Shown piece after piece: positions 509 through 61,484 of a stretch of DNA of 64,000 bases. The stretch is taken from assembly GCA_023898605.1 (NCBI GenBank), contig CP060230.1, positions 67,944-131,943 on the forward strand, in the 5' to 3' direction. The position numbers and the translations under genes are program-made. The notes below the pieces were generated by a model. It was not told the origin of the DNA. It did not search any database and saw only the letters and a list, made by a program, of their open reading frames with translations. Within the stretch, counting starts at the first letter, position 1. Each line of letters begins with the position of its first letter. This stretch comes from Candidatus Nomurabacteria bacterium (GTDB lineage: Bacteria > Patescibacteriota > Minisyncoccia > Phycocordibacterales > UBA9973).

Positions 509-1970
509 AGTAGGCAAGATCACAATATTTGTTTTTATATTTTTGTTTTTTACACAAAGGGCGAGTGCGCTCGTTATAAACGAGGTCATGTATGATCTAG
601 ATGGAACTGACACAGATAGAGAGTGGATAGAGATTTACAATGACGGAGGTTCTAGCTTGGACATAGAGGGATACAAGTTTTTTGAAGCAAACAGTAATCA
701 TACTCTTACAATATATTCTGGTAGTTATGTTTTGCCAGCAGGGTCTTATGCTGTGATTTGTCAAAAACCAGAAACTTTTCTTTCTGATTGGCCGGGTTTT
801 ACTGGTACTCTTATAGATTCTAGTTTCTCTCTTTCCAACGAGTCTGGAGAGTATCTAGAGATAAGAGATTCCAACCTCGCTACGGTTGCAACTCTTTCTT
901 ATGATCCAAGTATTGGTGCCGCTGGTGATGGTAATTCGCTTAACCGCAATGGTTCGTCTTGGATAGCGGCTTCTCCGTCTCCTGGGTCTAGCAACAATAC
1001 TTCTTCTAATTCTAGTAACGACAATACTGACAACACAACTACTACCACAACTACAACAGCTTCTTCTAGCTCCGGATCACCGACTTCTTCTGGAGAAACT
1101 GTACAGAAGCAATCTTCTTGGTCTATCACTTTTTCTATGCCGAGTTCCGGATATGTGGGTGACGAAATAGAGATAGAAGGGATTGTAAAAAATCTTTTTC
1201 TAGAAAGAATACGGTCAGGGTTTTTTTTCTGGAATATGGGAGATGGATCTGTGTATGAAGGAGAAAAACTTTCTGAGATAACACACACTTATAAATATCC
1301 AGGAGATTATATAATCGTTTTGGAGTATTGGAGAAATGGATCTTTTGAACCAGAAGTTATTGCTAGAAAAAATATAACTATAGAAAATAGTAGTATCAAG
1401 ATTTCTCCAATTTCTTCACCAAACGGAACAAGTATCAAGATAGAAAACTCTGGCAAGGGCGAGATAGATCTTGGTGGTTGGGAAGTTATGCTTGTCGGAA
1501 GTTCGTATATCTTGCCTAAGAATACTATAATCTTGCCATCAAAAACTATAACTCTTATGCCAGAGCAGACAGGATTTACCTTTGTCGGAAACTCTCTTTC
1601 TCTCATGGCGCCTGACCATACACTAGCTTCAACTTACAGTACTCAGCCCGTTACGAGTTATGCTTATAGTTCCGGGGGTGGGTCTACTGGGATTTCTAGA
1701 GCAGTTTCTTATGGTGGTGATAGTGATGTCGATGTGCTTCCTAGGGCATCATTTACCGATGAAGAATCTAGTAATCTTTCTGCAAACGTTATAGATTCTG
1801 GCATTTCTAAAAATACTTCCGTGTATGCGTTTTTTGTAATATTTCTTTTCTTGGTTTCTCTAGGATATTTGTATATAAGAAGAACGAGCTTTGCCAAAGC
1901 CGGAGAAGATATAGAAGACACGGCTCCAGAAGAAGAGGAAGACGGCTATGATTTCAAACTTCTAGAGTAA
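498..1970 (+). CDS. secreted/membrane-anchored protein with two lamin-tail-domain (LTD)-like modules and a PKD-like module
   Basis: There is an N-terminal hydrophobic signal-like segment. LTD-like strings are LVINEVMYDLDGTDTDREWIEIYN and IKIENSGKGEIDLGGWEV; a PKD-like string is GDGSVYEG..HTYKYPGDYII. It also has a poly-Thr/Ser/Asn linker and a C-terminal TM helix. Confidence 0.7.
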   Translation: MMNKVGKITIFVFIFLFFTQRASALVINEVMYDLDGTDTDREWIEIYNDGGSSLDIEGYKFFEANSNHTLTIYSGSYVLPAGSYAVICQKPETFLSDWPGFTGTLIDSSFSLSNESGEYLEIRDSNLATVATLSYDPSIGAAGDGNSLNRNGSSWIAASPSPGSSNNTSSNSSNDNTDNTTTTTTTTASSSSGSPTSSGETVQKQSSWSITFSMPSSGYVGDEIEIEGIVKNLFLERIRSGFFFWNMGDGSVYEGEKLSEITHTYKYPGDYIIVLEYWRNGSFEPEVIARKNITIENSSIKISPISSPNGTSIKIENSGKGEIDLGGWEVMLVGSSYILPKNTIILPSKTITLMPEQTGFTFVGNSLSLMAPDHTLASTYSTQPVTSYAYSSGGGSTGISRAVSYGGDSDVDVLPRASFTDEESSNLSANVIDSGISKNTSVYAFFVIFLFLVSLGYLYIRRTSFAKAGEDIEDTAPEEEEDGYDFKLLE

Positions 1971-1972
1971 AT

Positions 1973-2542
1973 CTAATTAGAAATTTTCTTCAATATAAGC
2001 GGTACTTTTTTGAAATCATTTATTAGAGTTTCTCTCATTCCTCCGTTATATAGTGCGGCTGCGGGGTGGTAAAGTGGCAAGAAATATTCTGTTTGTATAT
2101 TTTTGAATTTTTTGTGTATTAGTTTACCGTGAGCTTCCGATATTTTTAGTTCAGGAAAAAAGTCATTCATAGAGTGCCTCCCGAGAAAAATTATAAGTTT
2201 TGGTTTTATAAAGTTTAGCTCTCCCAGAAGCCACTCTCTGCACGCATCTTTTTCTTCTGGTAGAGGGTCGCGGTTATCTGGTGGGCGATACTTTACTATG
2301 TTTGTTATGTAGATATCTTCTCTTTTTAGTTTTGTCGTTTCTAGCATTTCTGACAAGAATTTGCCGGCAGCTCCTATAAAAGGCCTACCTTCCTGGTCTT
2401 CTTTTTTGCCAGGTGCTTCACCAATAAATACTATATCGGATTTCGGGTTTCCGTCTCCAAACACGGGCCTAGTTGCTGACTTTTTCAATTCACATTTTGA
2501 AGATTCGTGCCATTTTTGTTGGAGTTCTGATAGATTCGCCAT
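1973..2542 (-). CDS. uracil-DNA glycosylase, family 4
   Basis: Shows the motifs GEAPGKKEDQEGRPFIGAAGKFL and HPAAAL, which are typical of family-4 UDG. Confidence 0.8.
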   Translation of the reverse strand: MANLSELQQKWHESSKCELKKSATRPVFGDGNPKSDIVFIGEAPGKKEDQEGRPFIGAAGKFLSEMLETTKLKREDIYITNIVKYRPPDNRDPLPEEKDACREWLLGELNFIKPKLIIFLGRHSMNDFFPELKISEAHGKLIHKKFKNIQTEYFLPLYHPAAALYNGGMRETLINDFKKVPLILKKISN

Positions 2543-2583
2543 GCTTTTATTATACTTGTTTTTCTGATATAGTGCAGAGTGCT

Positions 2584-2883
2584 ATGTCAATCAAGAAATT
2601 TATAATGAAAAACGCCCTTAGGGCAAAAGGTGTTTCAAAAGAAGATGCTGAGAATTTTGCAAGCAAGATAGAGGGTAACCCAGAACTGATCGCCTCTATG
2701 AAAAAACTAGAAGAAAACAAAGAAGTAAAAGCACTTTTTGAGAAAATACAAAAAGAAATAGAAGAAAAGAAAAAAACCATGCCCGAGATGTATGCAACTG
2801 TTCAGGTTATGGGTAAATACAAACAAGAAGTCATGAAGCACAGAGATGAGCTCATGCCACTTTTTGAAATGATGAACAAGTAA
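2584..2883 (+). CDS. hypothetical small helical protein
   Basis: I place the start at the internal ATG at 2584, which avoids overlap with the UDG gene. The charged KE-rich sequence has no recognisable domain. Confidence 0.4.
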   Translation: MSIKKFIMKNALRAKGVSKEDAENFASKIEGNPELIASMKKLEENKEVKALFEKIQKEIEEKKKTMPEMYATVQVMGKYKQEVMKHRDELMPLFEMMNK

Positions 2884-2900
2884 AAAAGTCAAAAATCATA

Positions 2901-3272
2901 ATGCAAAACTCAAAAGTTAAATTCAAAACAGACTTAATTGAAAGAGCGTATGATTTTGGTTTAAAAGTTATATTTCTTTGTGACAAGTTACCGCAAAAAA
3001 GAAGTTCTTGGGTTATATCAGATCAAATAATAAGATCTGGCACATCTATCGGAGCAAACCTTGTTGAAGCAAAGTCCTCAAGTTCTAGATTGGAATTTAA
3101 AAGGTTTTACGAAATAGCCTTGAAAAGTGGGAACGAGTCTGTTTATTGGCTTAGACTTTTATTTGATGCAAGTTTAATAAACAAAAAAGATTTTGATTCA
3201 TTAAAAGAAGAGTTAGATGAAATAAATAAAATGGTCGCTAAAAGTGTTATTAGTTTGAAGAAAAAGTTATAA
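2901..3272 (+). CDS. four-helix-bundle protein (23S rRNA intervening-sequence protein family)
   Basis: The string SIGANLVEAKSSSSRLEFKRFYEIALKSGNESVYWLRLL matches the family signature (IGANI.EA....S..DF...L.IA.GS..E..YWL). Confidence 0.75.
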   Translation: MQNSKVKFKTDLIERAYDFGLKVIFLCDKLPQKRSSWVISDQIIRSGTSIGANLVEAKSSSSRLEFKRFYEIALKSGNESVYWLRLLFDASLINKKDFDSLKEELDEINKMVAKSVISLKKKL

Positions 3273-4899: not shown

Positions 4900-5202
4900 A
4901 TGCAAAAGTACGTAAAATATTCTCTTAAATTAGCATATAGTTTTGTTTTGTCAGTCGTATTTTCTTTTTGTTTATCTGCAAGTATACCTATGATCTTTGG
5001 TGACAATTTAAGAGATTTTTTTGATTTTCAGGATAAACCATATGGATATGTAGGATTGTTTCTGCTTACTATATCTAGTATTTTATTTTTTGTGTTATAC
5101 GAAAAAAATAATAGTATCTTTAGGTCATTTGAAAGAATAACAATACTTCTTATTTATTTTGTCATTTTATCCTCATTTTTTACAGCGAGTGTGCAATATT
5201 AA
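4900..5202 (+). CDS. hypothetical polytopic membrane protein
   Basis: Contains several hydrophobic helices. No family was recognised. Confidence 0.4.
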   Translation: MQKYVKYSLKLAYSFVLSVVFSFCLSASIPMIFGDNLRDFFDFQDKPYGYVGLFLLTISSILFFVLYEKNNSIFRSFERITILLIYFVILSSFFTASVQY

Positions 5203-5206
5203 ATAT

Positions 5207-5488
5207 ATGAAAACTATAGAAAAGATATACAAATTTATATACTCAGTCTTTCTTTCTCTACCAATTATTTTACTTATAAATGTAACTTTTATTCTTTTTT
5301 TTAAGAGAGCCTCTTTTTTTCATAGTTTTGCCACTATTGGCATAGCTATAGTTCTCTCTATACCTTTTACATTTTTGATATTCAGATCAGTTTTAAGAGA
5401 GCGAAGATTTATTTTGGTTGTAGAAAGGTCTATTATAGTTTTAGTATTCTTTTTTATTGCATTTATTTTTTCAAGATTAATTTTCTAG
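5207..5488 (+). CDS. hypothetical membrane protein
   Basis: I place the start at the internal ATG at 5207, just after the upstream stop. The protein has hydrophobic helices. Confidence 0.4.
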   Translation: MKTIEKIYKFIYSVFLSLPIILLINVTFILFFKRASFFHSFATIGIAIVLSIPFTFLIFRSVLRERRFILVVERSIIVLVFFFIAFIFSRLIF

Positions 5489-5527
5489 ACAAAAATTAAT
5501 CTTTGTTTTATATAAATCAGTATCTCT

Positions 5528-5725
5528 TTACTCTTCAAAAATTCGGGGGATTTTTACTACAATTGATAGACATGGATCATCGAAATTATGGATAAGAAAT
5601 GGCGGAGACGCTCTCCCTTCACTTCTTTTGACAACGATACTCATATCATCATTTTTTTCAGGGATGAAAATCGTTGCCCCAGTCGGACAGGTATAGCATT
5701 TCTGCTTTTTGTTTTTTTCTGACAT
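5528..5725 (-). CDS. hypothetical protein, 65 aa
   Basis: Supported only by the ORF itself. No motif was recognised. Confidence 0.25.
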   Translation of the reverse strand: MSEKNKKQKCYTCPTGATIFIPEKNDDMSIVVKRSEGRASPPFLIHNFDDPCLSIVVKIPRIFEE

Positions 5726-5831
5726 AAGAAAGATCCAATTTAGTTATCACCATATTACATCATATAAACTATAGTGTCAAGTTGTAATATTTATCGAAAA
5801 ATATACGTTTTTTTGCTATAATCGAGGGACA

Positions 5832-5870
5832 ATGGAGGGGAAATATGACCATAAAAACATAGAAAAAAAT
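5832..5870 (+). pseudogene. relic of the leuS 5' end (MEGKYDHKNIEKN..)
   Basis: YDHKNIEK parallels the real LeuRS N-terminus NYDHKGIERKW. The relic runs straight into a GC-rich insert. Confidence 0.5.
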
Positions 5871-5932
5871 GGCCCTCCTTCGCTTCTTCTTCGCCAAGTC
5901 TACGAAGAACAAGGCAAGGCTACGGCGGGCGC
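5871..5932 (+). repeat. GC-rich structured insert between the leuS 5' relic and the functional leuS start
   Basis: Contains the hairpin ttcttcg..cgaagaa and the core caaggctacggcgggc, which is also seen inside ychF. Confidence 0.5.
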
Positions 5933-5970
5933 ACAGATATATGCACTAAGGTGAAATATTTAATTTAAGT

Positions 5971-8900
5971 ATGAATAACTATGATCACAAAGGAATAGAA
6001 CGTAAGTGGCAAGAGAGGTGGGAGAAAGACGGTATTTATACTGTTTCGGACAAGGAAGAAAACAAAGATAATTTCTATACTCTAGTAGAATTTACATATC
6101 CATCTGGAGATTTGCATGTTGGCCACTGGTACGCGTTTGCAGTGCCAGATATTTTCGCACGATATAAAAGGATGCAAGGATACAACTCACTTTATCCTAT
6201 GGGATTTGATGCGTTTGGACTACCAGCAGAAAATGCAGCGATAAAACTAGGCGCAGATCCAAAGGTTTGGACATATGAGCAGATGGACAAGATGCGTGGG
6301 CAATTCAAAACAATGGGAGCAAGTTTCGACTGGGATAGAGAGGTAGTTTCTTGCGACCCGAATTATTACAAATGGACACAGTGGATGTTCAACCAATTTC
6401 TAAAAAATGATTTGGTTTATCGCGATACTACCAAGGTAAACTGGTGTCCCAAAGACAAGACAGTTCTTGCCAATGAACAAGTTGTAGACGGCAAATGCGA
6501 GCGATGTGGAAGTGAAGTAGAGCAGAAGAACCAGGATCAGTGGATGATTCGTATTACAAAATATGCCGATAGATTGATAGACGATCTGGATATTCTAGAT
6601 TGGCCAGATGCGATAAAAGATGCACAAAAAGCATGGATAGGAAGAAGCGAAGGAAGTGAGATAAGTTTTTCTCTAAATTATGAAAAAGAAAAAGTAAAAA
6701 ATGAATATTTCAAGTTTAGACCAGAACTTGTTGAATTAATTGAAAAAGGTTTGAAGACAGCAACCTTTAGAATGGAAGCTAAAAATGTTTCTGTTGGCGA
6801 TATTGTTAGTTTGATTAATTGGTCAGATGGCAAAGAAAGTAATCAAAAAGAGTTTGATAAAGCTAAAATAATAAAAGTCTCGGAACATAAATTAGGAGAT
6901 TTGCCACTTGATTATCCTGGTCACGAAAAAGATTCTTCAGTAGAAAAAAGACTTGCAAGGTATCAAGAATACTATGGCGACCACATAACAAACGATTCAA
7001 CTGTTTATATATATGAATTTCTTCCTCTTTCAATTCGTGTTTTCACCACTCGCGCAGACACACTATTTGGCGTGACATATGTTGTACTTGCTCCAGAACA
7101 CCCACTAGTAAATAAACTTCTTGATCAAGTAGAGAACAAAGAAGAAGTAGAAAAGTATATAGAAGAAACAAAGAAAAAGTCAGAACTAGAAAGACAAATT
7201 GGTTCAAAAGATCCTTCGACTGGCTCAGGACTAGGAAAAACTGGCGTAGAATTAAAAGGTATAACTGCAATAAACCCAGCAAATGGTGAAGAAGTGCCAG
7301 TTTGGATTGCAGACTATGTGCTTGCTGGGTATGGTACAGGTGCTGTTATGGCGGTACCTGCTCACGATGAGCGAGATTTTGAATTTGCAAAGAAATATGG
7401 ATTAGATTCTAAAATAGTTATTGTGAATTCGACCGGAGAGTGTACAGACGATGCTATTTCAAGAAATGTTGTTAAATCTTTTATAGAAAAGGACGGAAAT
7501 GTATATTTAGTAAGAGATATAGGTCCAAGCGGAAAGTCTTACTGGTCACTTCCTGGTGGTGGATATGAAGATGCAGAAGACGATATCTCTGCACTTACAA
7601 GAGAAATCATGGAAGAAACTCCATTTCGAAATATAAAAATTGGACAATTCATAGGGGCATCAAGACATTGCTATGATTTCAAAGCTATAAAAAATTCACG
7701 TTTAACAAAAATATTTTACGCAAGTTATGATATTGAGAATAAAAATTCAAACCCTCAAGTTCCTGGAAACTGGTTTCCAAAAGATGAGGCAATAAGGATG
7801 CTTTTGGAAGATGGAATAATAATAGAAGGAAACATACTAAGTAACTACTTTGAAGGAAAAATTAATACAGATAATGGAATTTTGATAAATTCTGGAAATT
7901 TTAATGAAATAACTTCAGAAGAAGCTAAGAAAAAAATCACAGAATTTGTTGGAGGAAAAATGGTAAAGACTTACAGACTTCGTGACTGGGGAATAAGCCG
8001 CCAGAGATATTGGGGTTGTCCTATACCTATAGTTTACGATCCGGAAGGAAAAGCTCACGCGATCCCAGACGAACATTTGCCATGGATATTGCCGACAGAT
8101 GTAGATCATACTCCAGACGGAACACCACCTCTTGCAAGAAGCAAAGAGCTTTTTGAACGAACAGAAAAAATATTTGGCGAAGGTTGGAAGCCAGAAGTAG
8201 AAACAATGGATACATTTGTAGATTCTTCTTGGTATTTCTATAGATACTTAGATAACAAAAACGAAAAAGAATTTGCATCGATAGATAGTATGGATGCATG
8301 GATGCCGATAGATATGTACATGGGAGGAGCAGAGCATACAACTATGCACTTACTATATTCACGATTCTGGACAAAAGCTCTTTATGATCTCGGACTAGTA
8401 AAAGATAACGAGGCATATAAGATGAGACGAAACAGAGGGCTTATACTTGGTCCAGATGGAAACAAGATGAGTAAATCAAAAGGAAACGTCATAAATCCAG
8501 ACGAAGTTGTAGATAGGCTTGGTGCAGATACGGTGCGATTGTACCTTTGTTTTATGGGGCCATACGGAGTGACTGTAAACTATCCGTGGGATCCAAACGG
8601 GGTTGTAGGTGTGAGAAGATTTCTAGAAAGAGTTTGGAAATTGAAAGAAAAAATAGATCCAGAGAAAAAAGTTTGTCGTACAGACCCACTTGTACACAAA
8701 ACAATCAAAGGCGTCACGAGTGACATGGAAGAGTTCAAGTTTAACACTGCTATATCCAAGATGATGATACTATCCAACGCTTTGGAAGGAGAGGATAAGA
8801 TAGTAGAAGCTTCTTATAAAGCCCTGCTTCGTCTTCTTTCACCATTTGCACCACACATAACAGAAGAGTTATGGCAATCTTTTGGACATTCTTCGTCAGG

Positions 8901-27314: not shown

Positions 27315-27857
27315 ATGCAAAACCCAAACTTGATTATTCGGTACATTTTTCCATTGATTAATTCAAATGGAATTGACTCTAGTATTGGATTTTTGACCGA
27401 CACAGAGATACAGGGTTGTAATATACACTTTGTATCCAATTTCTTCTGGAATGAATTTTATCCCACTAAGTATAGTGGAATGGAGATTCTAGAAGAGTGC
27501 ATCAATCAGTCACTCATGGAAAATCCACGAGAAATTTTTTTGTTTCTTGTTCAGATGAAGCAGGCAGACAAACTGATTTCGCGTGAGAAAATACCCATGC
27601 CATGCATTCACCCCAAAGACATGATTCTCGGAAACACTGTTCTGGAAATTCAAAACATTTCAGAACTAAAAAAGATGAGAGGTGGAGTACCTGCTTCGAT
27701 TTCGGATATACCTTATATCGAGGTTGGCTCAAAGAGGAGAGATCATGTCATCTATCCGTTTACCTTTGAGTTCGACATTGATCCAAAAGAAGTCGGAAGG
27801 CCATTTTTTGGAATCGACAGCGTCGAATTTCCAAACCACAAAAAACAGATATCTTAA
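27315..27857 (+). CDS. hypothetical protein, paralog 1 of a tandem pair
   Basis: Shares blocks with 27944..28504: FWNEF..KYSGMEILE vs YFWKQ..KYFGMEKLE, and IPMPCIHP vs IPMPMIPP. It has its own promoter and terminator. Confidence 0.5.
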   Translation: MQNPNLIIRYIFPLINSNGIDSSIGFLTDTEIQGCNIHFVSNFFWNEFYPTKYSGMEILEECINQSLMENPREIFLFLVQMKQADKLISREKIPMPCIHPKDMILGNTVLEIQNISELKKMRGGVPASISDIPYIEVGSKRRDHVIYPFTFEFDIDPKEVGRPFFGIDSVEFPNHKKQIS

Positions 27858-27864
27858 ATCACAA

Positions 27865-27888
27865 GCACCCCACGTCGGGGTGCTTTTC
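27865..27888 (+). terminator. terminator hairpin gcaccccacgtcggggtgc plus T-run, fused to the next -35 TTGACA
   Basis: Read directly from the sequence. A near-identical module lies at 28511-28534. Confidence 0.7.
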
Positions 27889-27943
27889 TTTGACAAGAAA
27901 TATTATATGGGTGTATATTCAGAAATGAATAAAACCCTCAGTT

Positions 27944-28504
27944 ATGAAAGAAACATATCTCATTTTGAGACAACTGTACTTTACCAGTATAGGAGAACCT
28001 TATATCTTCGTAAGCGAAGATGAACTTTTCCACGGAAGGAATTTTAACACCAGGGTTGAAGAAATTTATATTGTTTCTGAATACTTTTGGAAACAAAACC
28101 CTCATAAGTACTTTGGAATGGAAAAATTAGAATCTTTAATTTCTGAACGCGTTGAAGATCATAGGTCTGCACGTATTATTTTTTTCTTTATGGAGAAAAA
28201 TTATCTTGATAAAATTATCAAGAGATCTTGTATTCCTATGCCAATGATTCCTCCCGGGTGTATTGCCTACGGTATTGATATTCGCCCCATGCTTTTTTAT
28301 TCTATAGAAATCGATAAAAATCTTCGCATCGGACATATCGGAGACAAAGAAGCACCCATTGTGTGGACAGATGAGGAAAAACCAAGACCTTTGGTTGGAT
28401 CAGTATTTTTCAATTATGATTCCATGTTAAAATATCCGGACGGCATAATACCTTTGTATATAGCTGGTCCAGGCTTCAATGACGCTCGCTTTAAGGTTAT
28501 CTGA
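27944..28504 (+). CDS. hypothetical protein, paralog 2 of a tandem pair
   Basis: See the evidence for paralog 1. Its 5' region is nearly identical over 35 nt to that of paralog 1. Confidence 0.5.
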   Translation: MKETYLILRQLYFTSIGEPYIFVSEDELFHGRNFNTRVEEIYIVSEYFWKQNPHKYFGMEKLESLISERVEDHRSARIIFFFMEKNYLDKIIKRSCIPMPMIPPGCIAYGIDIRPMLFYSIEIDKNLRIGHIGDKEAPIVWTDEEKPRPLVGSVFFNYDSMLKYPDGIIPLYIAGPGFNDARFKVI

Positions 28505-28510
28505 AATAGT

Positions 28511-28534
28511 GCACCCCGCGTCGGGGTGCTTTTC
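28511..28534 (+). terminator. terminator hairpin gcaccccgcgtcggggtgc plus T-run
   Basis: Read directly from the sequence. Confidence 0.7.
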
Positions 28535-28583
28535 TTTTGACAAAATCTGATTTTTGATGTAATTTAACAAAAAATTGAAAACT

Positions 28584-29135
28584 ATGGTTAAGAAATATTT
28601 ATTTCCCAGGAACAGACTCGTTTTGACATTCAGGGGTTTAAGATTCACAATTGCTTTTGGATACGACAAAAACTGTTTTGGAGGGAAGAATAATATATTT
28701 TTTTCTTCTCTACTTTATTCTCAGGTCTATTTCTTTTTGGAGGTCCCCAATGACCTGGGCGGTATCGAAGCTTTTCATAGAATCCAGCCATCTTCTGGTA
28801 AAAAAGTGTATGCCGAAGGTGCTGGGGGACCGTTTTTCTACCCAAGTGAATTTTTTGATTTCATGGTTTCGGATATTTCTGAAGCAATTATGAATAATAA
28901 ATCACAGCAAGCAGAAGAATGGAAAAGGTTTATGAATAGCATCGTCGTTATAACCGTTGGTCCCCAGAAAAATATCGTGGGTTTCTGGTTCGAGGATGAT
29001 GTGATTCATGAGATTGGTGGAGCAGTTCTCACCAAAAGGTTCGAAGATCTCCAGCACGTGTTTGAATCTTTTCCAAGACGTATGGTTTTGGCTGCTGTAA
29101 AAAAAAGGGCGGGAAACAACAAAGGAAAAAGATAA
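28584..29135 (+). CDS. hypothetical protein
   Basis: I prefer the ATG at 28584. No family was recognised. The gene is followed by the terminator aaaaagcgccacttggcgcttttt. Confidence 0.45.
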   Translation: MVKKYLFPRNRLVLTFRGLRFTIAFGYDKNCFGGKNNIFFSSLLYSQVYFFLEVPNDLGGIEAFHRIQPSSGKKVYAEGAGGPFFYPSEFFDFMVSDISEAIMNNKSQQAEEWKRFMNSIVVITVGPQKNIVGFWFEDDVIHEIGGAVLTKRFEDLQHVFESFPRRMVLAAVKKRAGNNKGKR

Positions 29136-29565
29136 CTCAAAAAGCGCCACTTGGCGCTTTTTATTTTTGTGAAGTTTTGCCACCCTCCCGTTCGTGTGTG
29201 CGTAAAACCCCGCTCGTAAGGACGAGAGGGGGAGGTGCGAGCGGGGCTCCCTAAAAACAAAACCACTCATATTATAAGTGGTTTTGGAGCAAGGTATACT
29301 CATCTGTCGCTATCTAAGTTACCAGTTCTTATACAACTGCTCATCAAGCTCTAAAGATATTGATAACTATTGCTCAGTCTGACCTTTATTTTCCGCGTCG
29401 TTGGCGCAAAGCACTTGCGGCAACAGATTTTTCTTTTTTTCGAGGGAGGTCCTTTCTCAAAAGTTTTGATGCAAGTTTGCCAACTTTTTTACTAGTTTTT
29501 GCCATAAAATTATATAAATTAATTATTAATATCGACCAATATAGAAATATGTGGAAAACTGTACA

Positions 29566-29594
29566 TTGAAAACTTTCTATATATTTTCTATAAT
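29566..29594 (+). promoter_or_regulatory. promoter TTGAAA-17-TATAAT giving a near-leaderless lexA-MTase mRNA
   Basis: The TATAAT ends 7 nt before the ATG at 29602. The promoter is flanked and overlapped by the inverted repeat atatagaaa (29539-29547) / tttctatat (29574-29582). Confidence 0.55.
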
Positions 29595-29601
29595 ATCATA
29601 C

Positions 29602-31050
29602 ATGATTACAAAAAAGCAAAAAAATGTGCTGGATTTTATAAAAAATTTTCAGCAAAAAAATGCTATATCCCCATCATTAGAAGAAATTAAGAAAAAATTT
29701 GGTTTAGCTTCCGTTTCTACAGCTTCTTATTATGTTGAAAAACTAGAAAGCAAAGGATATTTAAAAAAAGACGACAAACAACACAGAGGAATATCGGTTT
29801 TTGAAAACGAAAGCATGGTAAAAATACCTTTACTTGGCGTAATTGCTGCTGGAGAACCAATACAATCCATAGAAAACCGTGAAGAGATTGCACTTCCAAA
29901 GAGTAGGATAGGCAACAACAATAATGTTTTTGCATTGAGGGTCTCAGGAGACAGTATGATCGACGAAAATATACAAGACGGTGATGTGGTTGTTGTAAGA
30001 GAAACTAAAAACCCCACAAACGGTGATAAGGTTGTCGCATTAATAGATCGAGAGAATGTTACTTTAAAAACTTTTTATAAGGAAAAAAAACAAATTTTAC
30101 TTAAACCAGCAAATAAAAAATATGACTCGATTGTCATAGATAAAAATAGAGAATTTGAAATTCAAGGAGTGATGATTGATATTGTAAAACAATCATTTAA
30201 CAATCCTGTAGATATTATATTTCCAGAAAAGGCGCAGAAACGAAAAACGACTATTCCTCTAAATAAAGTAGTGTGTGGAGATTGTGTTGATGTGATGAAA
30301 AATATACCAGACAACTCCGTTGACATGGTCGTTACTTCTCCACCTTATGATGATGTAAGAAACTATAATGGTTTTAGTTTTAACCTACACGACACAGGTA
30401 AAGAAATCTTTAGAATTTTAAAAGACGGTGGTGTTGTAGCTATGGTTATCCAAGATCAAACAAAAAATTTTGGTAAAAGTTTAACATCTTTTAGAACTAT
30501 CGTTGATTGGGTGGATAATATAGGTTTTAAATTATTTGAAACAGTAATTTATAGAAAACATGGTACCGAGGGGGCATGGTGGAAATATCGTTTTAGGGTA
30601 GATCATGAATATATGCCAATTTTTATTAAAGGAGAAAGACCCAGCTATTTTAATAAAGAAAATCTTAAGATACCCTCAAAGCATGGTGGAAAAGTAATGA
30701 CTGGTAGTGGAAATAGAAAGACTGATGGAACAACAACAAAAACAGTTACAAGACCTATAAATTTAAATAAATGCCGTGGAACTATTTGGGATTATTTGAA
30801 TGCAGGTGATAAGAATCCATTAAAAAGAAAACATCCAGCTGTATTCCCAGATCAAATTCCTGTGGATTTTATAGATTGTTTTTGTCCGCCTAAAGGCATA
30901 GTCCTTGATCCGTTTGTAGGTTCAGGATCAACACTAGTTGCCGCTAAAAAGCTCGGGAGAAATTATATTGGGATTGATATCTCACAAGAGTATTGTGATC
31001 TAACAGAGGAAAGATTAAAAAAGGATATACCAAACACCTTATTTAAATAG
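29602..31050 (+). CDS. LexA (wHTH plus S24 peptidase) fused to a beta-class N4/N6 DNA methyltransferase
   Basis: The N-terminal half has LexA features: cleavage site VIAAGEP, the Ser motif VSGDSM and the Lys motif VTLKTFY. The C-terminal half has MTase motif IV (TSPPY) and motif I (DPFVGSGST). The frame is continuous. Confidence 0.85.
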   Translation: MITKKQKNVLDFIKNFQQKNAISPSLEEIKKKFGLASVSTASYYVEKLESKGYLKKDDKQHRGISVFENESMVKIPLLGVIAAGEPIQSIENREEIALPKSRIGNNNNVFALRVSGDSMIDENIQDGDVVVVRETKNPTNGDKVVALIDRENVTLKTFYKEKKQILLKPANKKYDSIVIDKNREFEIQGVMIDIVKQSFNNPVDIIFPEKAQKRKTTIPLNKVVCGDCVDVMKNIPDNSVDMVVTSPPYDDVRNYNGFSFNLHDTGKEIFRILKDGGVVAMVIQDQTKNFGKSLTSFRTIVDWVDNIGFKLFETVIYRKHGTEGAWWKYRFRVDHEYMPIFIKGERPSYFNKENLKIPSKHGGKVMTGSGNRKTDGTTTKTVTRPINLNKCRGTIWDYLNAGDKNPLKRKHPAVFPDQIPVDFIDCFCPPKGIVLDPFVGSGSTLVAAKKLGRNYIGIDISQEYCDLTEERLKKDIPNTLFK

Positions 31051-31053
31051 ATT

Positions 31054-32079
31054 TTATTCCATCTTATCAGGAGTTTCTAAGGTGTATTCTATATTTATTC
31101 CACTTGTCATTGCCCAAGATAATGGGTTTTTATCAAAAAACGCCTTGAAATTAACATTTGTTAATGTTTTTCCGTCTTTTTCGAAACTGCTTTTTGTAAA
31201 TTTATACAATTTAAATCCATTCCATCTCCACGAATTTTTCTTGTATTCCCACTTAGTTAAAGAGCCAAGCAATGTTAAGAATTTTTCAATTCTCTCCACT
31301 GCACCTTGATTAATTTTATAGCTAGTTCCATCTTCCTCAGTATTGTAATGTTCGCCATCTTTAGTTGATATTTTTAATCTATCACCCCTTTCGTGAGGAA
31401 TACTTATTTTATCCCTTTCTCTAAAGAAATTATCCATCTCTCTCATCAAGTTTATAATTGTTGTATATTTTTCATTTTCAAAAATTACATTTAAAGGGCT
31501 ATTTTTTTTATCAGCATCAAGATAATTTAACCAATTTAAAACATTCTCCGGATAACTAAATAAAACATTGAAAACACCATCTGTGAAATATAGTGGCGGT
31601 ATAGAATCCTCATCCAAAGCGACACGAGTGTGTTCGTTTACTATTCCCATAAGAATATGAATTGTTGCCAGTGGATATTTAAGACGAAAGTCATGTTTTC
31701 CGTCATACTCTCTTAAATTATTTGGCTGGATACAGTTTTTAAATTTTTCATCCCAATTTGCAGGTTTATTATTTTTATTTAAAAGCAACATATGGTGACC
31801 CAAACTACGAATATCGCCTCTGGAGATTTCCATGTCTAAAAAGATACAATCTTTTGGTTTAATTCCATCCTTTAAAACCATAACCTTCCCATCATAAAAA
31901 CCTTCTATAGTCCAATCAAAATAATGAGACATGAACAGCCCACATAGCAAACCGTCACTATCCGGACTAAGAATTGCTTTATGATTTCTCTCAACGATCC
32001 AAGGATATTTTTTGATTAAATCTTTATAATCAATTTTATCATTGTGTCTATTTTCTAATAATCTCTGTATATTTGACAT
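31054..32079 (-). CDS. putative type II restriction endonuclease
   Basis: The call rests on context. The gene is convergent with the MTase (3-bp gap) and 4 nt downstream of a C-protein-like HTH gene. No family was recognised by eye. Confidence 0.45.
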   Translation of the reverse strand: MSNIQRLLENRHNDKIDYKDLIKKYPWIVERNHKAILSPDSDGLLCGLFMSHYFDWTIEGFYDGKVMVLKDGIKPKDCIFLDMEISRGDIRSLGHHMLLLNKNNKPANWDEKFKNCIQPNNLREYDGKHDFRLKYPLATIHILMGIVNEHTRVALDEDSIPPLYFTDGVFNVLFSYPENVLNWLNYLDADKKNSPLNVIFENEKYTTIINLMREMDNFFRERDKISIPHERGDRLKISTKDGEHYNTEEDGTSYKINQGAVERIEKFLTLLGSLTKWEYKKNSWRWNGFKLYKFTKSSFEKDGKTLTNVNFKAFFDKNPLSWAMTSGINIEYTLETPDKME

Positions 32080-32083
32080 AAAT

Positions 32084-32305
32084 TTATTTAACGAAAAAAT
32101 CTAGCGATTTTTTATAAAGTTTTGCAAACTCTTTGAGTTGCAAAACATCAAAGCGTCTTTGTCCAGATTCTATCTTTGAGACATAAGATTGAGTTCTGCC
32201 AAGTTTTTCAGAGACTCCAATCTGACTTAAACCAGCTTCAAGACGCGCTTTTTTCAAGCGTTCTACTATTTTCTTATGGTCGTCTTGATAAATCGCTCTT
32301 GGCAT
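32084..32305 (-). CDS. XRE-family HTH, controller (C) protein-like
   Basis: The 73-aa protein shows LSQIGVSEKLGRTQSYVSKIESGQR and sits immediately upstream of the putative REase. Confidence 0.7.
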   Translation of the reverse strand: MPRAIYQDDHKKIVERLKKARLEAGLSQIGVSEKLGRTQSYVSKIESGQRRFDVLQLKEFAKLYKKSLDFFVK

Positions 32306-32365
32306 ATATCTATATAATAGTATTCCATTGTGTATTATTCCAAATTGCCATATAATTTATATAGA

Positions 32366-32455: not shown

Positions 32456-32737
32456 AGCGCCGAGGTACAAGGTGCTAGTCGGCATGATTAGTAGTTTTCG
32501 AAAAAAGTTCGCGCATTGGTTATAATTTCATCACAAAGTACACAAAAATCCCACGCAGGTGGGATTTTTGGTCTTTGTGACCCTAGTCGTGGTGCGACCA
32601 TACGATTCGTTGCTCCCACAATGCTTTTTTGGCTTTTTCTATTATATCAAGTCGACCCTTGTCGAGCGACAAAAAGTGACAAAAGTGACACAGGTTTAAA
32701 TAAAAAGGTTACAGCAATCTGTAACCTTTTTGCTACT

Positions 32738-34260: not shown

Positions 34261-34310
34261 AGTCCTGCATAGTCTTAGCAAACATAGTGAACTCTGTCAT
34301 CAATATATAC

Positions 34311-35594
34311 ATGACAGAAATAATAAAAGACAATTTAAAGTATTGTTTGTACGCCCGCAAATCAACCGAAGCAGAAGAAAAACAAGCTCTTTCTATTGAT
34401 TCCCAAATCAAAGAAATGAAGCAAATAGCTGATCGTGAAGGGTTAAATATTGTTGAGATTCGTCGTGAATCTCATAGTGCAAAAGAATCAGGTCAACGAC
34501 CAGTATTTGAAGAAATACTAAAGGATATAGACGACGGCATATTTAACGCCATTATCACTTGGGCACCAGATAGATTAAGTCGTAATGCAGGAGACCTAGG
34601 AAAACTGGTTGATCGTATAGATCAAAAGAAACTAACTCAAATCAAAACTTTTGGTCAGACATTTACAAACTCACCAAGTGACAAATTTCTTCTTATGATT
34701 TTGTGTTCTCAAGCAAAACTTGAGAATGACAACAAGAGTATTAATGTGAAGCGAGGTATGAGAGCACGGTGTGAAATGGGATTATGGCCAGTACAGCCAC
34801 CAACTGGATATAGAAAGCCAAATGAGAGATTGTCTAAATGTGAAGTAGAGATTGATCCAGAAAGAGCACCGGTTATCAAACAAATTTTTGAAAAGATTGC
34901 ATACGAACGATGGAGCGGAATGAGAGTATATTCGTGGTTGCGATATGAATTAAATTTTAAAACACACAAAGGATTCTATTTAAGTGTCGGAAATGTATTT
35001 AAGATAATCAACAACACCTTTTATTACGGACGATTTGAATTTCCACAAGGAAGTGGAAACTGGTATGACGGAAAACACACACCAATAATCAGTAAAGAAC
35101 TTTTTGATGATTGTCGATCTGCAATTAAAACACAGGTCATAAAAACCCATGGAAAAGAGTTTGCGTTTACTCGAATGGTGAAATGTGGATCGTGCGGATC
35201 GGGGATTACTGCTGATGAGAAGTTCAAGAAGTTGCTAAACGGAGGAGTAAATAGACATGTCTATTATAGGTGTACGAAGTCGAAAGATAGAAAATGTACG
35301 AATCCTGCAATAAACGAAGACGATCTATTAAAAGAATTTCAGAAAATGGCAGGAACTTTGGAACTTAATGAAGTACAACTTAATGAGAAATTAAATCTTG
35401 AAATTAAGAAATTCAAAAAACTTCAAGCGATGTTTTTAGGAAAGGACAACCCAGCAGATATACAGAAAGTTGATCTCAGAAATTACATGAAATTCGTTTT
35501 GAAAGACGGAACAATTTTAGAAAAACGATCGGTTCTTGATTGTATAAAAAACGATCTAGTTTTGAAAAATAAGATCATAATAGTTAAAGAGTAA
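34311..35594 (+). CDS. large serine recombinase
   Basis: Shows YARKSTEAEEKQALSIDSQ (catalytic Ser region), a recombinase domain and a Cys-rich zinc ribbon (CGSCGSG...YYRC). I prefer the ATG at 34311. Confidence 0.9.
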   Translation: MTEIIKDNLKYCLYARKSTEAEEKQALSIDSQIKEMKQIADREGLNIVEIRRESHSAKESGQRPVFEEILKDIDDGIFNAIITWAPDRLSRNAGDLGKLVDRIDQKKLTQIKTFGQTFTNSPSDKFLLMILCSQAKLENDNKSINVKRGMRARCEMGLWPVQPPTGYRKPNERLSKCEVEIDPERAPVIKQIFEKIAYERWSGMRVYSWLRYELNFKTHKGFYLSVGNVFKIINNTFYYGRFEFPQGSGNWYDGKHTPIISKELFDDCRSAIKTQVIKTHGKEFAFTRMVKCGSCGSGITADEKFKKLLNGGVNRHVYYRCTKSKDRKCTNPAINEDDLLKEFQKMAGTLELNEVQLNEKLNLEIKKFKKLQAMFLGKDNPADIQKVDLRNYMKFVLKDGTILEKRSVLDCIKNDLVLKNKIIIVKE

Positions 35595-61296: not shown

Positions 61297-61484
61297 ATTG
61301 TCTTAAGGTGCTTTTCTATATTTATACCATATTTTCCACAGTTTCTCAATAGGTTTTATATGATATAATTTTATAAACAAAGACTAGAATTTCGAGCATC
61401 TCTGATATAACCCCCAAGAAAAATCGCTATATAACCAATATGGCAGGTCTTTTTGTTTTTATTATTTTTAATTTCTAACTAATC

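Follow-up and report, generated by a model that had tools for sequence, protein, structure and literature searches.

A LexA-type repressor fused to the methyltransferase of a Type II restriction-modification module in Candidatus Nomurabacteria: a predicted autorepressor pointing to a link with DNA damage

What does a complete LexA, the self-cleaving repressor of the SOS response, do at the head of a DNA methyltransferase? This question is raised by a gene lying in a 64,000-nucleotide stretch of a Candidatus Nomurabacteria genome (contig CP060230.1), hereafter called the window, which amounts to about 10% of the source genome. An open reading frame (ORF) spanning 29551..31050 on the (+) strand joins a LexA in frame to a methylase that belongs to a restriction-modification (R-M) module. 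The answer proposed here is that the fusion is probably a LexA-type autorepressor that sets the methylase level and whose RecA-triggered self-cleavage would raise that level after DNA damage. The design thus points to an undescribed link between DNA-damage signalling and the protection of a cell from its own restriction enzyme. The coordinates of all features are collected in Table 1.

The ORF is unbroken, with neither a stop nor a break of frame, and its translation start was placed at the ATG at 29602 by orthologs, which share the N-terminus M-I/L-T-K-K/R-Q-K. The resulting protein of 482 residues is 100% identical to an entry from a 619-kb Candidatus Nomurabacteria contig (P0001). By homology its N-terminus is a LexA, and all sequence-level tests of LexA membership gave this same answer. 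Pfam recognized both the winged helix-turn-helix (wHTH) domain and the S24 peptidase domain, and the lexA equivalog model of NCBIfam, TIGR00498, was matched over profile positions 4-200 of 203 with 172.7 bits, above its cut-off of 110.95. Over its whole length this half also aligned with LexA proteins of known structure (3k2z, 1.8e-29; E. coli 3jso, 5.5e-24), its N-terminal domain aligning without gaps to the LexA proteins of E. coli and T. maritima. An earlier reading of this DNA, made without database searches and called here the sequence-only reading, had claimed a complete LexA in frame with a methylase; one 482-residue ORF carrying every hallmark that it named, with an equivalog score above the cut-off, bears this out.

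In the C-terminal half, the Pfam family N6_N4_Mtase (PF01555) covers residues 240-470 over its full profile (1-221 of 221, 1.6e-38). Motif IV comes before motif I, which is the order of the beta class. Relatives of known structure were 2zie, 8s9n (an N4C methyltransferase), 1g60 and 1boo, and PADLOC labels this half MTase_II/oMTase. The SPPY form of motif IV presumably indicates N4-cytosine methylation. In 635 kb of host DNA, palindrome avoidance amounted to a mild generic depletion of many palindromes, none of them specific as the target of an R-M system. An AlphaFold2 (AF2) model of the fusion, built from a 16-sequence alignment and used only to delimit the linker, contained two folded parts with disordered residues 198-213 between them, at moderate confidence (overall predicted local distance difference test, pLDDT, 67).

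The sequence-only reading treated the fusion as a one-off, and this did not hold, since proteins joining a LexA to a DNA methyltransferase form a wide class, found in uncultured bacteria of ultra-small size, to which this gene belongs. The best 120 homolog clusters all consist of proteins of about 480 residues that align over their full length with the same three domains, at 61-100% identity. The fusion clusters, more than 120 altogether, come from NCBI, JGI, ENA and Logan assemblies, and those that are named belong to Candidatus Nomurabacteria, Giovannonibacteria, Pacebacteria and the 'Patescibacteria group'. A scan of one genome per species returned 319 relatives, and the fusion was unbroken in about 50 of the best 80 loci, at 59-96% identity. 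When the LexA half alone was searched against 1.84 billion representatives clustered at 50% identity, its closest relatives were mostly long proteins (378-890 residues) with the LexA at residues 1 to about 200.

From this search 56 diverse fusion representatives, sharing about 31-56% identity, all contain both LexA domains. Gly84, Ser118, Met119 and Lys156 are invariant among them and Ala83 is at least 90% conserved; among closer orthologs, Ala83-Gly84, Ser118 and Lys156 are retained in 15 of 16. The C-terminal partner is N6_N4_Mtase in 31 of the 56, Eco57I in seven, D12 in five, N6_Mtase in five and C5 in three, and MmeI-type and TaqI_C signatures were also observed. By these domain assignments, the DNA methyltransferases that carry a LexA module belong to five or more families unrelated to one another; the sequence-only reading had proposed a search for further lexA-methylase fusions. 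The named members are from many Patescibacteria lineages and from Omnitrophota, and NCBI and UniRef call such proteins just 'transcriptional repressor LexA'. On a 6.3-kb contig labelled Omnitrophota (L056), two different fusions were found (564-3204 and 4992-6317), the first of which is 621 residues long, contains an N6_N4 methylase in circularly permuted form and precedes a nuclease of the EcoRII-C family.

The two halves together were not found on phage records, plasmid records or viral contigs, where the methylase half occurs alone. On the viral contigs of IMG/VR (L166-L213), homologs of this half stand by themselves (57-73% identity over residues ~206-476), never with a LexA module; these may be phage anti-restriction methylases directed against this same R-M family. 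In the literature searched, no description of natural LexA-methylase fusions was found, only of artificial ones made for epigenetic editing. As far as this literature shows, the regulation of a methylase by a fused SOS repressor able to cleave itself has not been described, as the sequence-only reading had supposed, and neither has the breadth of the design.

The regulatory side of the gene is just as conserved. The upstream regions of the fusion genes have in common a direct repeat of two 7-nt units with a period of 11 bp, predicted to be the LexA operator. In the window this repeat reads TTTCTAT-N4-TTTCTAT with the spacer atat; the first unit lies within the spacer of the promoter and the second overlaps the -10 element. 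The ATG is reached 7 nt past the -10, which implies a leaderless or nearly leaderless mRNA, as had been claimed from the sequence alone. Between lineages both 7-nt units shift together, through the variants TTTCTAT, TTTCGAT, TTTCGGT, GTTCGGT, TTTCGCT, TTCGGG and CTCGGG, and the 4-nt spacer drifts. Some fusions carry exactly GTTCGGT-N4-GTTCGGT, and direct-repeat LexA boxes of equal 11-bp period, GTTC-N7-GTTC, are known (PMC8565304). The same repeat grammar was also observed in an unrelated fusion family (P0270 type, 615 residues; 80 metagenome loci) and at the first L056 fusion.

In the sequence scanned, this operator is a private one. A single perfect copy exists in the window, at the fusion promoter, and when the strict pattern was scanned in 1.36 Mb of related loci, 82 of the 83 matches were located within 260 bp upstream of a gene with a LexA domain. 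The proposal that the LexA part also controls other SOS genes found no support in these counts, which gave no further operators in the window or in the flanks of about 110 loci. Secondary sites at 5205-5233, 20193 and 61313-61340 were rejected as unconvincing, being inside ORFs or single units in AT-rich DNA. At 5205-5233 on the (-) strand, three tandem TTTCTAT-like units with an 11-bp period lie inside a small hydrophobic ORF whose start is at 5206; in DNA so rich in AT they are probably a coincidence.

The sequence-only reading had pointed to an inverted repeat flanking the promoter. Its arms do exist (ATATAGAAA at 29539-29547 and TTTCTATAT at 29574-29582), but the role of operator was not sustained, because the direct repeat alone is conserved across orthologs. 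The downstream arm coincides with unit 1 of the operator, and the upstream inverted unit was present only in the window and in four of the related loci examined (L003, L005, L021 and L035).

Two loci with free-standing LexA proteins place this type of box in a familiar setting. In one of them (L165, 4001-5829), lexA heads a lexA-dinB operon whose promoter reads TTGAC-TTTCGAT-ttat-ATTCGAA, so that the box type is a genuine LexA box in a canonical SOS context. In the other, from an Omnitrophota metagenome-assembled genome (L163, 4001-5567), a lexA of 199 residues is followed 53 bp later by a D12 (Dam-like) methylase, and the direct-repeat box also precedes this split pair. Taken together, the two loci connect the LexA part of the fusions with a clade whose members are ordinary repressors of the SOS response. 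Both were obtained with a query (P0279) intended to retrieve free-standing patescibacterial LexA proteins; the query proved to belong to a Planctomycetota/Omnitrophota clade.

Does the LexA part read this repeat? The recognition helix of the window protein is S39-T40-A41-S42-Y43-Y44, and in the gap-free alignment to E. coli LexA, with an offset of n+2, Y43 corresponds to Glu45, S42 to Glu44 and S39 to Asn41. In helix III of E. coli LexA five residues contact DNA, Glu45 and Glu44 among them, and Asn41 also contacts DNA (PMC3091678). The residue X of the helix S-T-x-H-X-H was compared with the operator unit in 95 promoters, 90 of which had a detectable repeat. Where X is Q the unit contains TCGGT, where it is E the unit contains TCGGG, where it is K the unit contains TCGCT, and where it is F, Y or H the unit contains TC(T/G)A(T/A). 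This code was satisfied in 89 of the 90 promoters. When labels were permuted 20,000 times the maximum was 49, a result that is not a probability because related sequences are not independent. The concerted change of both units and the validity of the code with two methylase partners argue for direct read-out, and operator specificity is split into at least four classes. The earlier claim that the LexA part represses the methylase promoter is thereby strengthened, for the -10 is overlapped by a conserved operator whose two copies change along with a helix residue predicted to contact DNA.

A second element is conserved in the promoters of these LexA genes, TGTGGAAAAC in the window and TGTGGATAACT as the family consensus. 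The corresponding 11-mer, TGTGGA(T/A)AACT, was found in 83 of 111 non-redundant LexA-gene promoters, twice in 14 of them. It occurs in either orientation and its position varies: it may abut the repeat, lie upstream of the -35 or stand just before the ATG. In the 1.36 Mb, 97 of its 168 copies are in promoter windows, which represent about 1.4% of the sequence. The 11-mer is constant across the LexA helix classes and the methylase families, and this invariance suggests that it is read by neither the LexA helix nor the methylase. It was absent from the 100 bp upstream of stand-alone methylase genes in other phyla, and was not seen upstream of lexA in L163 or L165. Its reverse complement matches the textbook DnaA box, TTATCCACA. 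Through it, DnaA may couple methylase synthesis to replication, which is an attractive hypothesis.

Judged from its sequence and its neighbours, the gene is the modification methylase (M) of a mobile, C-protein-controlled Type II R-M module, in which it converges with the genes for a controller (C) and a restriction enzyme (R). The convergence with a C-protein and putative endonuclease operon described by the sequence-only reading was found again, as ORFs of 341 residues and of 73 residues (HTH_3) on the (-) strand. The 341-residue protein is the putative cognate restriction endonuclease of this methylase. It adjoins the methylase in 78 of 82 loci, fused or free, convergent or co-directional, in bacteria and archaea, as one would expect if it were the cognate restriction enzyme. 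It gave no sequence match in Pfam, NCBIfam, PADLOC or PDB, and its 1019 homologs are all labelled 'hypothetical'. Its AF2 model (pLDDT 91.8) yielded weak DHH/RecJ-like fold matches, below the confident level.

The C gene is upstream of R in about 33 loci, and palindromic C-boxes are conserved upstream of the C genes in 30 loci (for instance ATTCCAATTTGGAAT). No LexA-type repeat was found upstream of C and R, where C-boxes are present instead; a LexA operator at this place was therefore rejected, the C gene having its own C-boxes. The module as a whole is patchy in distribution. Stand-alone methylase homologs with 74-79% identity occur in Clostridia, Bacteroidota, Planctomycetota, Oligoflexia, Mollicutes and archaea, and the partner gene tracks the methylase across phyla. 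In the window the module has a GC content of 32.0% for a mean of 36.7%. The stop codons of M and R are 3 bp apart (31048-31056) and no terminator-like site separates them, so that the two transcripts should overlap or collide. Similarly tiny gaps between M and R were observed at the orthologous loci.

Natural variants of the design also exist. In six loci (L052-L055, L059 and L079), a separate and divergent LexA-like gene with wHTH and S24 domains is located directly upstream of a stand-alone methylase. In one locus (L057, 5992-7053) the fusion is reduced to 353 residues and consists of the wHTH and methylase, the S24 domain being deleted. In another (L026, protein P0102, 6001-7434) the fusion is full-length and the Ala-Gly bond, the Ser and the Lys are all replaced. 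These two variants both retain the direct-repeat operator and the DnaA-box-like element. Since split pairs and variants exist, regulator and methylase appear functionally coupled whether fused or split, and since variants without S24 or with a dead S24 exist, DNA binding appears to be the part that is always kept.

These elements can be assembled into a circuit. The fusion would dimerise through its S24 domain, and the two wHTH domains of the dimer would bind TTTCTAT-N4-TTTCTAT at its own promoter. The concentration of methylase would thus limit its own synthesis, making the protein a homeostat like the SsoII-type HTH-methylases. DNA damage, including the breaks made by self-restriction at under-methylated sites, would generate RecA filaments on single-stranded DNA, and because the LexA module is catalytically intact, such filaments would trigger cleavage at Ala83-Gly84. 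Cleavage would free the wHTH from the part made of S24 domain, linker and methylase, derepress the promoter and raise the methylase level until damage stops. The restriction gene is controlled apart, by the C protein and its C-boxes, and the whole would amount to restriction alleviation in a Type II form. Induction of SOS by Type II R-M systems that are out of balance is known, and so are methylases that repress their own genes (PMC3874152). It follows that the circuit would sense and correct the harmful output of its own restriction enzyme. The steps are not equally firm. The fusion, its conservation, its R-M setting and the private operator that overlaps the -10 and co-varies with the helix are seen in the sequences themselves. 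DNA binding and autorepression by the fusion are strongly indicated by the conserved operator and its co-variation, whereas cleavage through RecA, and whether methylation would then rise or fall, are only inferred.

Several observations weigh against this proposal. Binding and cleavage of the fusion are both inferred from sequence. The capacity for cleavage was lost in L026/P0102 (Ala-Gly, Ser and Lys) and in L057 (S24) and the operator was kept, so that responsiveness to damage is not essential to the design and was dispensable in some lineages; on the other side, the invariance of G84, S118 and K156 across divergent fusions suggests that purifying selection acts on cleavage. The cleaved protein would keep its methylase on the S24 fragment, and in E. 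coli the fragments of cleaved LexA are degraded; the net effect on methylase could thus be negative. Helix, operator and promoter are linked and co-inherited, and part of their co-variation therefore reflects shared ancestry. The second L056 fusion breaks the code with an aberrant TGACACC-N4-TGACACC. An approximate query, E. coli RecA, gave no recA match in the 1.36 Mb of related loci. Finally, LexA autorepression leaves the invariant TGTGGATAACT element of these promoters unexplained.

Four other explanations were weighed. The fusion might be the only LexA of the cell, a master SOS regulator that represses recA, dinB, uvr and other genes; loss of the R-M module would then be loss of SOS control, a form of addiction. 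The LexA equivalog score and the database name of such proteins speak for this, as does the operator type, which is the SOS box of the canonical lexA-dinB operon (L165). In addition, no second lexA was found in the window, with its tenth or so of the source genome, or in the flanks of about 50 fusion loci, except in L056. This explanation is nevertheless unlikely. The operator is private, with one perfect site in the 64 kb of the window and strict matches almost confined to LexA-gene promoters; L056 carries two fusions with different operators, and the at least four specificity classes are those expected of insulated local regulators. Moreover, the R-M module moves between genomes and occurs in patches, and the methylase stands alone in other genomes labelled Patescibacteria (L060, L070, L078 and L080).

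It is quite unlikely, though in keeping with the two variants that lack a working protease and keep operator and box, that the LexA module is a mere dimerising DNA-binding tag, giving autorepression and perhaps dimerisation with no physiological response to RecA. Plain HTH-methylase autorepressors work without a protease (PMC3874152), and the catalytic residues of the fusion would then persist by recent ancestry or slow decay. Such an account is at odds with G84, S118 and K156, which are invariant in the 56 representatives despite their low shared identity and their different methylase partners.

A damage-triggered suicide switch appears very doubtful. Cleavage would here disable the methylase, methylation would lapse, and the restriction enzyme would kill the damaged or infected cell in a logic of abortive infection. 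The fate of the methylase is compatible with this, as it would remain on the S24 fragment and such fragments are protease substrates in E. coli. R-M systems behave like pairs of toxin and antitoxin, the methylase being the antitoxin (PMC3874152). Yet cleavage would also lift the repressor from its own promoter, so that new synthesis should rise, and existing methylation of the DNA persists without replication. Furthermore, variants with a dead S24 or none survive beside the same R gene, and there is no evidence for a degron. As for an artefact (two genes joined by a chimeric assembly, an overlooked stop or a frameshift, an error of the kind against which the sequence-only reading had cautioned), the source is a metagenome-assembled genome and split pairs of lexA-like and methylase genes exist in some lineages, but it was rejected as vanishingly improbable, since the same unbroken architecture recurs in independent assemblies, among them the 120 and more clusters and the genomes of about 50 species, with a linker region conserved in length.

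Around the module, a large serine recombinase (Resolvase, Recombinase and Zn_ribbon_recom domains) is encoded at 34287-35594 on the (+) strand, 2 kb from it, and together with the low GC of the module it hints at a mobile island. A gene for a class II aminoacyl-tRNA synthetase (Asp/Asn/Lys type) lies between the two. A strong hairpin with a 12-bp stem and T-runs on both strands, resembling a bidirectional terminator, is present at 32543-32570, between the promoter region of C and R and the synthetase gene. Directly upstream of the fusion, three unannotated ORFs of 180, 186 and 186 residues (27315-29135, (+) strand) gave no Pfam or PADLOC match; the first two are paralogous (38% identity over 71 residues, E 3e-11) and the third is not detectably related.

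Table 1. Features of the LexA-methylase locus and its R-M module, in window coordinates
Feature	Position	Strand	Evidence
Third, inverted operator-like unit ATAGAAA (part of inverted repeat)	29541..29547	+	Repeat scan
DnaA-box-like element TGTGGAAAAC (family consensus TGTGGATAACT)	29550..29559	+	Conserved in LexA-gene promoters
Promoter: -35 TTGAAA 29566-29571, 17-nt spacer, -10 TATAAT 29589-29594	29566..29594	+	Best scan site, 11/12 matches
Predicted LexA operator, direct repeat TTTCTAT-N4-TTTCTAT (units 29574-29580 and 29585-29591)	29574..29591	+	Conserved in orthologs
LexA-methyltransferase fusion gene, 482 aa + stop	29602..31050	+	Unbroken ORF, three Pfam domains, lexA equivalog
LexA winged-HTH, residues 2-63	29605..29790	+	Pfam PF01726 LexA_DNA_bind, 2.1e-12
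Peptidase_S24, residues 76-192	29827..30177	+	Pfam PF00717, 4.7e-30
Ala83-Gly84 in VIAAGEP, predicted autocleavage bond	29848..29853	+	Homologous to E. coli Ala84-Gly85
Ser118 in GDSM	29953-29955	+	Read from sequence; equivalent to E. coli S119
Lys156 in TLKTFY	30067-30069	+	Read from sequence; equivalent to E. coli K156
Flexible linker, about residues 198-213	30193..30240	+	AF2 pLDDT <50; ortholog alignment gapped and variable here
Beta-class N4/N6 DNA methyltransferase, residues 216-482	30247..31047	+	PF01555 over full profile
Methylase motif IV TSPPY, residues 245-249	30334-30348	+	Read from sequence
Methylase motif I DPFVGSGST, residues 436-444	30907-30933	+	Read from sequence
Putative cognate restriction endonuclease, 341 aa, uncharacterised family	31054..32079	-	Linkage to methylase
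Controller (C) protein, 73-aa HTH_3	32084..32305	-	PF01381, 7.9e-13; weak PADLOC Control_protein, 7.5e-5
C-box-like elements upstream of C: TGGCAATTTGGAAT 32337-32350; CAATGGAATA 32321-32330	32321..32350	-	Conserved palindromes

The favoured reading, that of a damage-cleavable autorepressor on the methylase, bears on a long-standing question, namely how a Type II R-M system spares its host when methylation lags, be it after repair synthesis, recombination, entry into a new host or stress. The known answers are C proteins, promoter methylation and autorepression by plain HTH-methylases, none of which senses DNA damage. A methylase with a complete LexA would wire the RecA damage signal directly to the protective half of the system. 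With at least five methylase families, dozens of clusters at 50% identity and the genomes of about 50 species, the design is not the curiosity of one genome. The apparent one-residue code would supply natural, orthogonal and damage-cleavable repressor-operator pairs. The label 'transcriptional repressor LexA' will mislead analyses of SOS regulons and methylomes in candidate-phyla bacteria. More tentatively, and at rather less than even odds, these fusions could form a general control layer for R-M in Patescibacteria and Omnitrophota. Each methylase would then have a private RecA-cleavable repressor, one helix residue would specify the operator triplet, self-inflicted damage would be sensed and answered by methylation, and the DnaA box would tie the circuit to replication. 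In cells with no other lexA the fusion would serve as the SOS repressor, methylation being then part of the SOS response.

How does the fusion compare with known systems? The SsoII-type enzymes methylate at C5; their HTH region is short and plain, and they have neither a protease domain nor an input for a signal. M.SsoII/M.Ecl18kI, M.EcoRII and M.ScrFIA resemble the fusion in having a domain at the N-terminus that binds DNA, an operator in their own promoter and self-repression (PMC3874152). As in these enzymes, the predicted operator of the fusion overlaps the core promoter; the resemblance is functional and not one of homology, the fold of the regulator and the class of the methylase being others. 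Unlike them, the fusion has a full LexA of about 200 residues with an intact Ser-Lys autoprotease and an Ala-Gly bond, potentially destructible by activated RecA (RecA*). Its methylase is of the N4/N6 type (elsewhere D12, Eco57I, N6_Mtase or C5), and it coexists with a C protein.

With canonical LexA proteins, those of E. coli and T. maritima and those of Alphaproteobacteria with direct-repeat boxes, the fusion shares the two-domain fold, the catalytic residues, an operator at its own promoter and the 11-bp period. It differs from them by an enzyme of 285 residues at its C-terminus, by an operator that occurs only at its own promoter in the sequence scanned and by the fact that paralogous fusions of different specificity can share one contig, as in L056.

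In the C-controlled R-M systems of the PvuII, Esp1396I and AhdI type, a small HTH controller is likewise found upstream of R with palindromic C-boxes, and M is likewise on its own promoter, convergent with C and R. Control of M is exerted there by the C protein or by promoter methylation, or is lacking altogether, whereas in the module of the fusion M has its own LexA-type repressor, which makes two separate controllers per module.

Type I systems undergo restriction alleviation after DNA damage, when ClpXP degrades HsdR. The likeness is that damage or unmodified chromosomal sites tip the balance from restriction to protection. The means differ, however, since Type I alleviation is proteolysis of the restriction subunit, whereas the fusion is proposed to act by transcriptional derepression of the methylase through self-cleavage of its repressor. 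Finally, the LexA-repressed symE and tisB and the CI repressor of lambda offer precedents in which an SOS input acts on a toxin/antitoxin-like or mobile module and an S24 repressor guards a mobile element. At symE and tisB, LexA acts in trans on a separate gene, whereas in the fusion the 'antitoxin' enzyme and its repressor are one covalent chain.

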